NCBI GenBank assembly: GCA_014237915.1
Contig: JABACC010000006.1
Span: 9,510-73,509, forward strand
DNA length: 64,000 nucleotides
Reading direction: 5' to 3'
Origin: Candidatus Paceibacter sp.
Lineage (GTDB): Bacteria; Patescibacteriota; Minisyncoccia; Phycocordibacterales; GCA-2747955
Below are positions 23,843-24,511 of this stretch, in pieces. Every line of letters starts with the position of its first letter. The stretch's first letter is position 1. Position numbers and translations under genes: made by a program. The notes below the pieces were generated by a model. The model was not told the DNA's origin. It worked only from the letters and a program-made list of their open reading frames with translations, and made no database searches.

Positions 23843-24010
23843 AAATTTTAAAATCCAAAAAATTGGGGGCAAAAATTTAAAAACGAAGTTTTTAAATTTT
23901 TGCCCCCAATTTTTTTAATTTTTATTTTCTCAATTTCTTAAAATTTTTAAATTTTTGTGGGCGCCCTTTGGGCGCCCAGCACCACCCTCCAAATTTTTTC
24001 AAAAAAAAAC

Positions 24011-24038
24011 TTGCATAATTTTTCCACATCCTTATAAT
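24011..24038 (+). promoter_or_regulatory. near-consensus sigma70-type promoter (TTGCAT - 16 nt - TATAAT)
   Basis: Read directly from the sequence. Followed by a structured 5' leader of about 75 nt with tccttaa/ttaagga hairpins, then an AGGAGG SD. Confidence 0.5.
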
Positions 24039-24116
24039 ATTATTTAGAAATCCTTAAAGTTTTTTTTAAGGATAAGGTGTCCCCAAAGTTTCTTAAGGAC
24101 AAAGCAGGAGGAAAAA

Positions 24117-24332
24117 ATGACATACCAAGCAGCAGCAGCAGCAGCAGCAGCAGCAGCAGCAGATATAGATACAGAAATTGGTCTTCTTTACGGTCAGGAA
24201 AGAAGATTGTCCGCCAAAGATACAAAAAACCTCTCAGATATTGAGATAGGAAACGTTACTAATATCAGAGGTGGAGGCCGTAGAGCAAGAGAACAAGCCT
24301 TGGAGAACATTAAAGCTTCTAATCAAGATTAA
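24117..24332 (+). CDS. small protein with an N-terminal poly-Ala tract encoded by (GCA)11
   Basis: AGGAGG is 7 nt upstream of the ATG. 'MTYQ-A11-DIDTEIGLLYGQERR...'. 71 aa. Confidence 0.4.
   Translation: MTYQAAAAAAAAAAADIDTEIGLLYGQERRLSAKDTKNLSDIEIGNVTNIRGGGRRAREQALENIKASNQD
24129..24161 (+). repeat. perfect trinucleotide microsatellite (GCA)11, equivalent to (CAG)11
   Basis: 33 nt, counted directly. In-frame as Ala codons. Confidence 0.95.
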
Positions 24333-24511
24333 TAAGAAAGGAGGTGAAAATATCTTCCTGCTACTTAGCAGGTCGTATTTTTAAAAAGCGCACTGGGGGA
24401 TGCGCTTTTTTTACTATTTTTATTTTTTAGATTTTTAGAGAAAAATTTTAAAATGAGTGTGGGCGCCCGAAGGGCGCCCACAAAAATTTTAAAAATTTTC
24501 TAAAGTCTTTG

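Follow-up and report, generated by a model that had tools for sequence, protein, structure and literature searches.

A perfect (GCA)11 repeat near the start of a 71-codon open reading frame (ORF) raises the question of what is encoded by the short unit in which it lies, referred to here as the micro-gene: a small protein, a functional RNA, a mobile cassette or nothing at all. The window (the whole stretch of DNA that was analysed, 64,000 nt long with a GC content of 29%) is part of an 87-kb scaffold from a single metagenome (ENA ERZ23487945, BUSC20-1_SAMN14422900 scaffold_112). The best explanation, which is held with moderate confidence, is that the micro-gene is genuine, has a transcript of its own and encodes a small protein specific to its lineage, in a Parcubacteria (Campbellbacteria-like) genome of roughly 29% GC. 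The features of the locus are listed in Table 1.

Table 1. Coordinates of the micro-gene, its predicted signals, its neighbours and a second orphan ORF (positions in the window).
Feature	Position	Strand	Details	Basis
RluF-like pseudouridine synthase gene	23123-23842		upstream neighbour	Pfam
Palindromic hairpin	23857-23915		28 bp, perfect; A/T-run flanks; 3' of RluF-like gene	
Left GC-only hairpin	23958-23978		TGGGCGCCC-TTT-GGGCGCCCA	-19.8 kcal/mol, z -3.6
A9 tract	24001-24009		precedes promoter-like site	sequence
Promoter-like site	24011-24016, 24033-24038	+	TTGCAT (3/6), 16 nt, TATAAT (6/6)	read from sequence
Stem-loop	24050-24073	+	10 bp; ~4 nt from predicted 5' end	-9.4 kcal/mol, z -3.4
Shine-Dalgarno sequence	24106-24111	+	AGGAGG, 5 nt ahead of ATG	sequence
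71-codon ORF	24117-24332 (second TAA to 24335)	+	MTYQ-A11-DIDTEIGLLYGQERR...ASNQD; tandem TAA TAA	ORF list
(GCA)11 microsatellite	24129-24161	+	perfect; encodes Ala5 to Ala15	sequence, TRF
Second SD-like site	24338-24346	+	AAGGAGGTG; 3 nt past stops	unpaired in predicted fold
Terminator-like hairpins (two)	24357-24372; 24383-24410	+	second with T-run	terminator scan, fold
Right GC-only hairpin	24458-24482	-	TGTGGGCGCCC-GAA-GGGCGCCCACA	-23.6 kcal/mol, z -6.4
tRNA-Lys (UUU)	24511-24584	-	convergent with micro-gene	
Orphan 146-aa hydrophobic ORF	27672-28112	+	promoter, 5' hairpin, AAGGAG, GC hairpin and terminator	

The host lineage is represented by one sample only (SRR11455651 / ERZ23487945). 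Exact-sequence look-up of the organism's proteins returned the ERZ23487945 assembly, its NCBI copy and the Logan assembly of SRR11455651, and nothing else. The RluF-like pseudouridine synthase encoded upstream of the micro-gene is most similar to a protein of a Candidatus Campbellbacteria MAG (66% identity, the highest among 185,579 species genomes), and its best match in the JGI metagenomes is 57% identical. As no sequence searched exceeds 66% identity to this neighbour, the organism can be described as a Parcubacteria-type CPR bacterium without a close sampled relative. A synteny set of 160 loci around RluF-like relatives, fetched from genomes and metagenomes, contained nothing resembling the micro-gene unit, and the closest of these loci (L002) shows no synteny.

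The original prediction described the repeat as a perfect 33-nt (GCA)11 tract that begins 12 nt past the ATG (24117) of the 71-codon ORF, and this description is correct. TRF calls the tract as AGC x11.7 with 100% matches (24128-24162). The tract had also been held to be unusual for an AT-rich genome. This holds as well: elsewhere in the window, perfect trinucleotide runs reach 4 units at most, and about 1.39 Mb of fetched Parcubacteria loci contain no other trinucleotide run of at least 6 units. The longest trinucleotide repeat of E. coli K-12 has 5 units (PMC7015867). An assembly artefact, which had been named as a possible source of the repeat, is not borne out. Contig L285 of the independent Logan assembly (SRR11455651) has an identical left flank and ends within the repeat after 9 units, approximately the point at which a de Bruijn assembler with short k should break off. 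As a second assembly carries the same flank and 9 units, the repeat can be considered real, although this agreement is silent on length heterogeneity. The 90% cluster of the protein has a single member.

The micro-gene had been characterized as strongly signalled, with a near-consensus promoter, a structured leader and an AGGAGG Shine-Dalgarno (SD) sequence. The TTGCAT-16-TATAAT arrangement is present and its -10 box is perfect, but the -35 box is weak. As TTGCAT matches the consensus at only three of six positions, the promoter falls below the threshold of the promoter scan and is not listed there. Transcription would start near 24046, approximately 7 nt past the -10 box. The leader is structured in one place: it contains a significant 10-bp stem-loop (24050-24073), for which none of 200 shuffles was as stable, but taken as a whole it is unexceptional (z -0.4). 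This stem-loop may stabilize the mRNA. The SD sequence is exactly as described, and in the predicted fold it is about 67% unpaired, with both the SD and the AUG mostly unpaired. Within the 64-kb window, the micro-gene is the only case in which AGGAGG and a start codon open an ORF of more than 32 codons.

Downstream of the tandem stops, a second SD is present as predicted, but no canonical start codon follows it. The two terminator-like hairpins come next (fold of 24330-24420, which includes both: z -2.9), and terminator-like sites are approximately ten times commoner than expected across the 2.5-kb stretch at the micro-gene. The unit therefore has the components by which a small gene is recognized, namely a start codon with its ribosome binding site, an open frame, a stop and, behind it, a terminator. 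It is strongly signalled by the standards of E. coli or Bacillus, but it is atypical for its host, in which most genes appear to be leaderless or to lack an SD.

The proposed model for the micro-gene, in which transcription, translation, mRNA stabilization, protein properties and repeat-length variability are all deduced from the DNA, is the following. A sigma-70-type promoter would give rise to an mRNA of about 365 nt, which would be protected by the stem-loop at its 5' end. The accessible AGGAGG would then permit efficient translation of a soluble 71-aa protein, probably with a helix-loop-helix structure in which Ala11 forms an N-terminal helix and GGGRRAR a basic patch. The two hairpins would end transcription, and the other palindromes would insulate the gene from the RluF-like gene on one side and the convergent tRNA-Lys gene on the other. 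The uninterrupted (GCA)11 tract would be young and prone to slippage, which would alter the length of the alanine helix but not expression.

The first steps of this model have a precedent. In E. coli ompA and in the Bacillus thuringiensis cry3A STAB-SD, a 5' stem-loop and a strong SD stabilize leadered mRNAs. The micro-gene resembles these in that its stem-loop would lie almost at the 5' end of the transcript and is followed by an accessible, near-perfect SD. It differs in that its transcription start is placed from the sequence and in that its host seems mostly leaderless or SD-less.

The base composition and codon usage of the ORF are consistent with translation. With the repeat excluded, GC at codon positions 1, 2 and 3 is 0.48, 0.38 and 0.28, respectively, compared with 0.39, 0.29 and 0.18 in native genes. 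The order GC1 > GC2 > GC3 is found in the ORF frame only and is the same as in native genes, shifted up; the GC3 value is about 2 sd above that of native genes. Codon likelihood was also compared with that of shuffles for the 56 non-repeat codons and calibrated on native and shadow ORFs. Stop-free shuffles were used in this test because shuffles with stop codons mainly measured the openness of the ORF. The 71-codon ORF has a codon z of 3.9 (p about 0.001), compared with 4.4 +/- 1.4 for native 56-codon pieces. The overlapping ORFs have lower values (minus-strand poly-Leu: 2.0, +1 poly-Ser: 1.6, minus-strand 35-aa: 2.5). The codon usage of the ORF is native-like and is the best among all overlapping ORFs. 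Wrong-frame open stretches within real genes have a mean codon z of 2.2 and a maximum of 6.5, and because shadow ORFs reach this value, the codon test supports coding without proving it.

The scores attained by shadow ORFs are among the observations that would be expected if the ORF were spurious, or very recent and non-functional, having arisen in a spacer in which a microsatellite expanded, with signals that are due to chance or belong to the neighbouring genes. The complete lack of homologues (discussed below), the presence of other long spacers in the genome and the frequency of promoter-like sites here, which is no higher than in shuffles, fit such an origin as well. Nevertheless, this origin is unlikely, given how many signals coincide: the sole AGGAGG and ATG with a long ORF in 64 kb, a perfect and well placed -10 box, a 5' hairpin, tandem stops and two terminators, with the roughly tenfold excess of terminator-like sites in addition. 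Judged roughly by hand from the base composition, the 60 non-repeat codons would remain open by chance in only about 1-2% of cases.

The opposite strand also contains an open frame, and it could be proposed that this strand encodes the product: a 61-aa, type I toxin-like peptide (24225 to 24040) with Leu11 in a hydrophobic segment of ~22 residues (core FLYLYL(L)11GMSFF), to which the plus-strand RNA would be antisense. This is extremely unlikely. The peptide would start with TTG, it has no convincing SD or promoter, its codon z is well below that of the plus-strand ORF (2.0 versus 3.9) and the plus strand carries much the stronger signals.

The original prediction had suggested looking in other genomes for the 60-aa C-terminal part of the protein; searches for relatives of the 71-aa protein returned only the protein itself. 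There was no significant match in Pfam, NCBIfam, PHROGs, PADLOC or the PDB sequences. A word-indexed search of 5.8 billion clustered proteins gave the self-match only, and an exhaustive HMMER scan, run against 1.84 billion representative proteins, likewise found nothing else. No relative was found in viral contigs or phage families, and the scaffold contains no paralogue of the micro-gene. As no homologue was found, there is no evidence of purifying selection on the ORF, but the conservation test has little power because no close relative of the lineage has been sampled. Orphan status is thus weak evidence either way, since even for the housekeeping RluF-like neighbour no relative exceeds 66% identity. 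The AlphaFold model, computed without an alignment, is of low confidence and has two helices (residues 4-26 and 33-68; pLDDT 62), and the protein is tentatively predicted to be a helix-loop-helix protein. It belongs to no recognized family and has no hydrophobic segment except Ala11.

Alternatively, the RNA itself might be the functional product: a non-coding or dual-function sRNA of ~365 nt with exposed SDs and a CAG-type hairpin that bind ribosomes, 16S rRNA or a protein, the ORF being incidental or secondary. Two of the strongest SD matches of the 64 kb do lie within a single 240-nt stretch of this SD-poor genome, and the second is unpaired and has no ORF. The whole predicted transcript is somewhat more stable than shuffles (z -2.5), and GC is 40-47% across the micro-gene region compared with about 25% around it, as is seen for structured RNAs of AT-rich genomes. 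However, Rfam has no family that matches the micro-gene region, either at the gathering threshold or at E <= 1, and no related sequence was found for covariation. The fold signal comes mostly from the terminators and the 5' hairpin, and the ORF frame has coding-type periodicity and native-like codon usage. A functional RNA is for these reasons distinctly less probable than a small protein gene, and is considered quite unlikely.

Two specific classes of RNA were rejected. The tmRNA (ssrA) also has an alanine-rich coding stretch in a small, GC-enriched transcription unit, and smpB is encoded in the window. However, the micro-gene lacks a tRNA-like domain and has its own SD and AUG, which tmRNA does not, and both ARAGORN and Rfam were negative. 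Attenuation leader peptides with single-codon runs (hisL, pheL and thrL; 14-30 codons) are comparable in that a small ORF repeats one codon near its start and has alternative hairpins and terminators behind it. The micro-gene has 71 codons and there is no co-directional gene downstream, the next feature being the convergent tRNA-Lys.

The unit had also been described as bracketed by two similar GC-rich hairpins. Both hairpins are present, the right one 2-3 nt away from the position first given, but they do not look like a special bracket, as perfect palindromes are abundant between the genes of this genome. The window contains more than 20 of these, mostly with cGAAg or cTTCg centres. The 64 kb contain four copies of the sequence GGGCGCCC, where 0.04 would be expected; it is confined to the two flanking hairpins and is absent from about 19 kb of further scaffold sequence. 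A GTGG...CCAC clamp is shared by both hairpins, and the right one also shares the loop style of the palindromes. The left hairpin is upstream of the micro-gene promoter and is not followed by a T-run on either strand. The right hairpin appears in the scan as a minus-strand terminator, with a T-run that starts only after 4 nt; when it is read on the minus strand, its loop is cUUCGg and CTCATTTT follows. Because of this loop and its position just 3' of tRNA-Lys, it is probably the tRNA-Lys terminator. The 28-bp palindrome that follows the RluF-like gene is likely a bidirectional terminator. Both GGGCGCCC hairpins fall outside the predicted mRNA. In viral contigs, their motif has more than 120 matches, and so it can be regarded as generic, stable and uninformative. 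From their sequence and position, the GGGCGCCC hairpins are interpreted here not as components of the gene but as palindromes with an insulating role where convergent genes lie close together, and as largely a matter of genome-wide architecture.

Because the two hairpins share a sequence that is otherwise unique in the scaffold, a further explanation is kept alive, in which the ~500-bp segment between them is a mobile or horizontally acquired cassette (MITE, PATE or IS200/IS605-type). The ends of the segment are similar over about 63 nt (71% as direct repeats, 78% as inverted repeats) and are found nowhere else. The GC contrast noted above, the SD-led layout, which is foreign to the style of the host, and the adjoining tRNA gene with its truncated duplicate would also be in keeping with acquisition. 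However, beyond the GC stems the similarity of the ends is low-complexity A/T, the hairpins match the palindrome style of the genome and the same motif is common in viral contigs. The scaffold has a single hairpin pair in about 83 kb, and no transposase (adjacent or otherwise), target-site duplication, second copy or paralogue was found, so the locus was not assigned to the class of hairpin-ended mobile elements. Furthermore, the codon usage is native-like, nothing related was found in phage or viral data and the tRNA duplicate is a 5' fragment upstream of the tRNA, whereas integration usually leaves a 3' fragment. A cassette is consequently very unlikely.

The tRNA duplicate is a truncated, degenerate copy of tRNA-Lys at 24620-24692 (minus strand), 100 nt upstream of the intact gene. 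It retains the 5' flank, the 5' strand of the acceptor, the D arm and part of the anticodon arm, but it has an 11-nt insertion and no T arm. Integration at the tRNA was rejected because the duplicated piece is not an att-type 3' remnant; the copy has the appearance of a partial duplication in tandem and not of a scar left by integration. Among the perfect intergenic palindromes of the window is a repeated family, GTGGATTTTGCC-(TTCG/GAAG)-GGCAAAATCCAC, with copies at 12146, 14045, 14933, 17740 and 27534 (also 24723-24767). Several of these are beside tRNA genes, and two copies have identical flanks (ATTAAAAATAGT ... GGCAAAAAATAA), similar to REP-type elements. The left GC-only hairpin is traversed on the minus strand by a basic 35-aa ORF (MWKNYASFFLKKFGGWCWAPKGRPQKFKNFKKLRK, 24029-23922), which begins 7 nt past a TAATAT box. 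This ORF is probably spurious despite its host-style leaderless layout and a codon z of 2.5.

If the micro-gene is a small protein gene, the consequences of repeat slippage depend on the position and the unit of the repeat. As the original prediction stated, slippage would keep the frame, because the unit is 3 nt long and in-frame. On/off switching by slippage is excluded for the same reason. The (GCA)11 tract lies downstream of both the promoter and the SD. Tuning of translation by repeat number through mRNA structure was rejected: when 4 to 30 units were modelled, accessibility was constant (SD 0.66-0.68 and AUG 0.87-0.90 unpaired). Because accessibility does not change, any effect of slippage would fall on the alanine helix at the N-terminus. 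Slippage may be recent or still going on, as the tract is so pure.

Simple-sequence-repeat contingency loci are found in host-adapted bacteria, for example the tetranucleotide repeats of Haemophilus influenzae (PMC2651432; review PMC9990875). The micro-gene is similar to these loci in having a long perfect microsatellite in the 5' part of a gene of a small-genome, probably host-dependent bacterium, and slipped-strand mispairing would be expected to make the repeat length hypervariable. It differs in that the 3-nt unit cannot switch the frame and in that its variation in length is a prediction. In addition, neither a signal peptide nor a membrane segment that would point to the cell surface was recognized in the 71-aa product. 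Of the defining properties of a contingency locus, the micro-gene thus has the long perfect repeat within an ORF but not the switching of expression by repeat number. A literature search found no report that ties CPR bacteria to repeat-mediated variation. It is improbable that the locus is a hypermutable small effector or regulator of variable length in an episymbiotic CPR bacterium, and as such the first locus of repeat-driven variation to be described in this radiation, or that its SD-rich transcript is a regulatory RNA or ribosome decoy in an organism whose translation is otherwise independent of SD sequences. Should the alanine tract vary in populations, ultra-small CPR bacteria would diversify a protein by microsatellite slippage, a strategy that to our knowledge has so far been described mainly for host-adapted pathogens. 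The importance of the locus is nonetheless modest, as it comprises one orphan gene from one metagenome.

The layout of the micro-gene differs from the initiation style of most genes in the window. A perfect TATAAT is located 5-9 nt before the ATG of 12 of 43 long ORFs but before only 1.5% of all ATGs. This box often has the form TGnTATAAT (examples: 21370, 22170-23063 on the minus strand, 24778-25479 on the minus strand, 40072 and 52392). A 4-mer SD core precedes 3 of the 43 long ORFs, which equals the background rate, and the ribosomal-protein genes in the window have no SD. With TATAAT so close to ATGs and SD cores at background, the genome looks largely leaderless or SD-independent. The orphan 146-aa ORF has the same layout of promoter, 5' hairpin and SD as the micro-gene and, similarly, no homologue was found for it. 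These two would represent a minority class of leadered, stabilized, SD-led genes in this genome. Such orphan genes, which appear to be highly expressed, could provide a handle on translation initiation in CPR bacteria.

The 146-aa ORF has other peculiarities. In a core of ~200 nt (27797-28000), almost all codons have C as their last base. Much of what the core encodes is Ala, Ser and Phe, and LSALAAAFAA is encoded there by a direct repeat that is exact over 31 nt. The codon z of the core is 0.8 (non-native), compared with 2.9 for the N-terminal part, which is native-like. The ORF is located just upstream of the 23S rRNA promoter. The 23S rRNA match (28632-31952) is 3321 nt long, and as the model has 2925 positions, the insertions in this gene can be estimated at about 400 nt in total. 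It has no linked 16S rRNA gene on its upstream side and is followed by the 5S rRNA alone. On the other side of the 146-aa ORF, a 37-bp perfect hairpin (25916-25992) extends across the first ATG of the glycyl-tRNA synthetase ORF (25946-27397). The true start of this gene is probably a downstream ATG after tgtTATAAT, around 26015-26040, in which case the first 23-30 codons or so of the ORF would be an over-extension.
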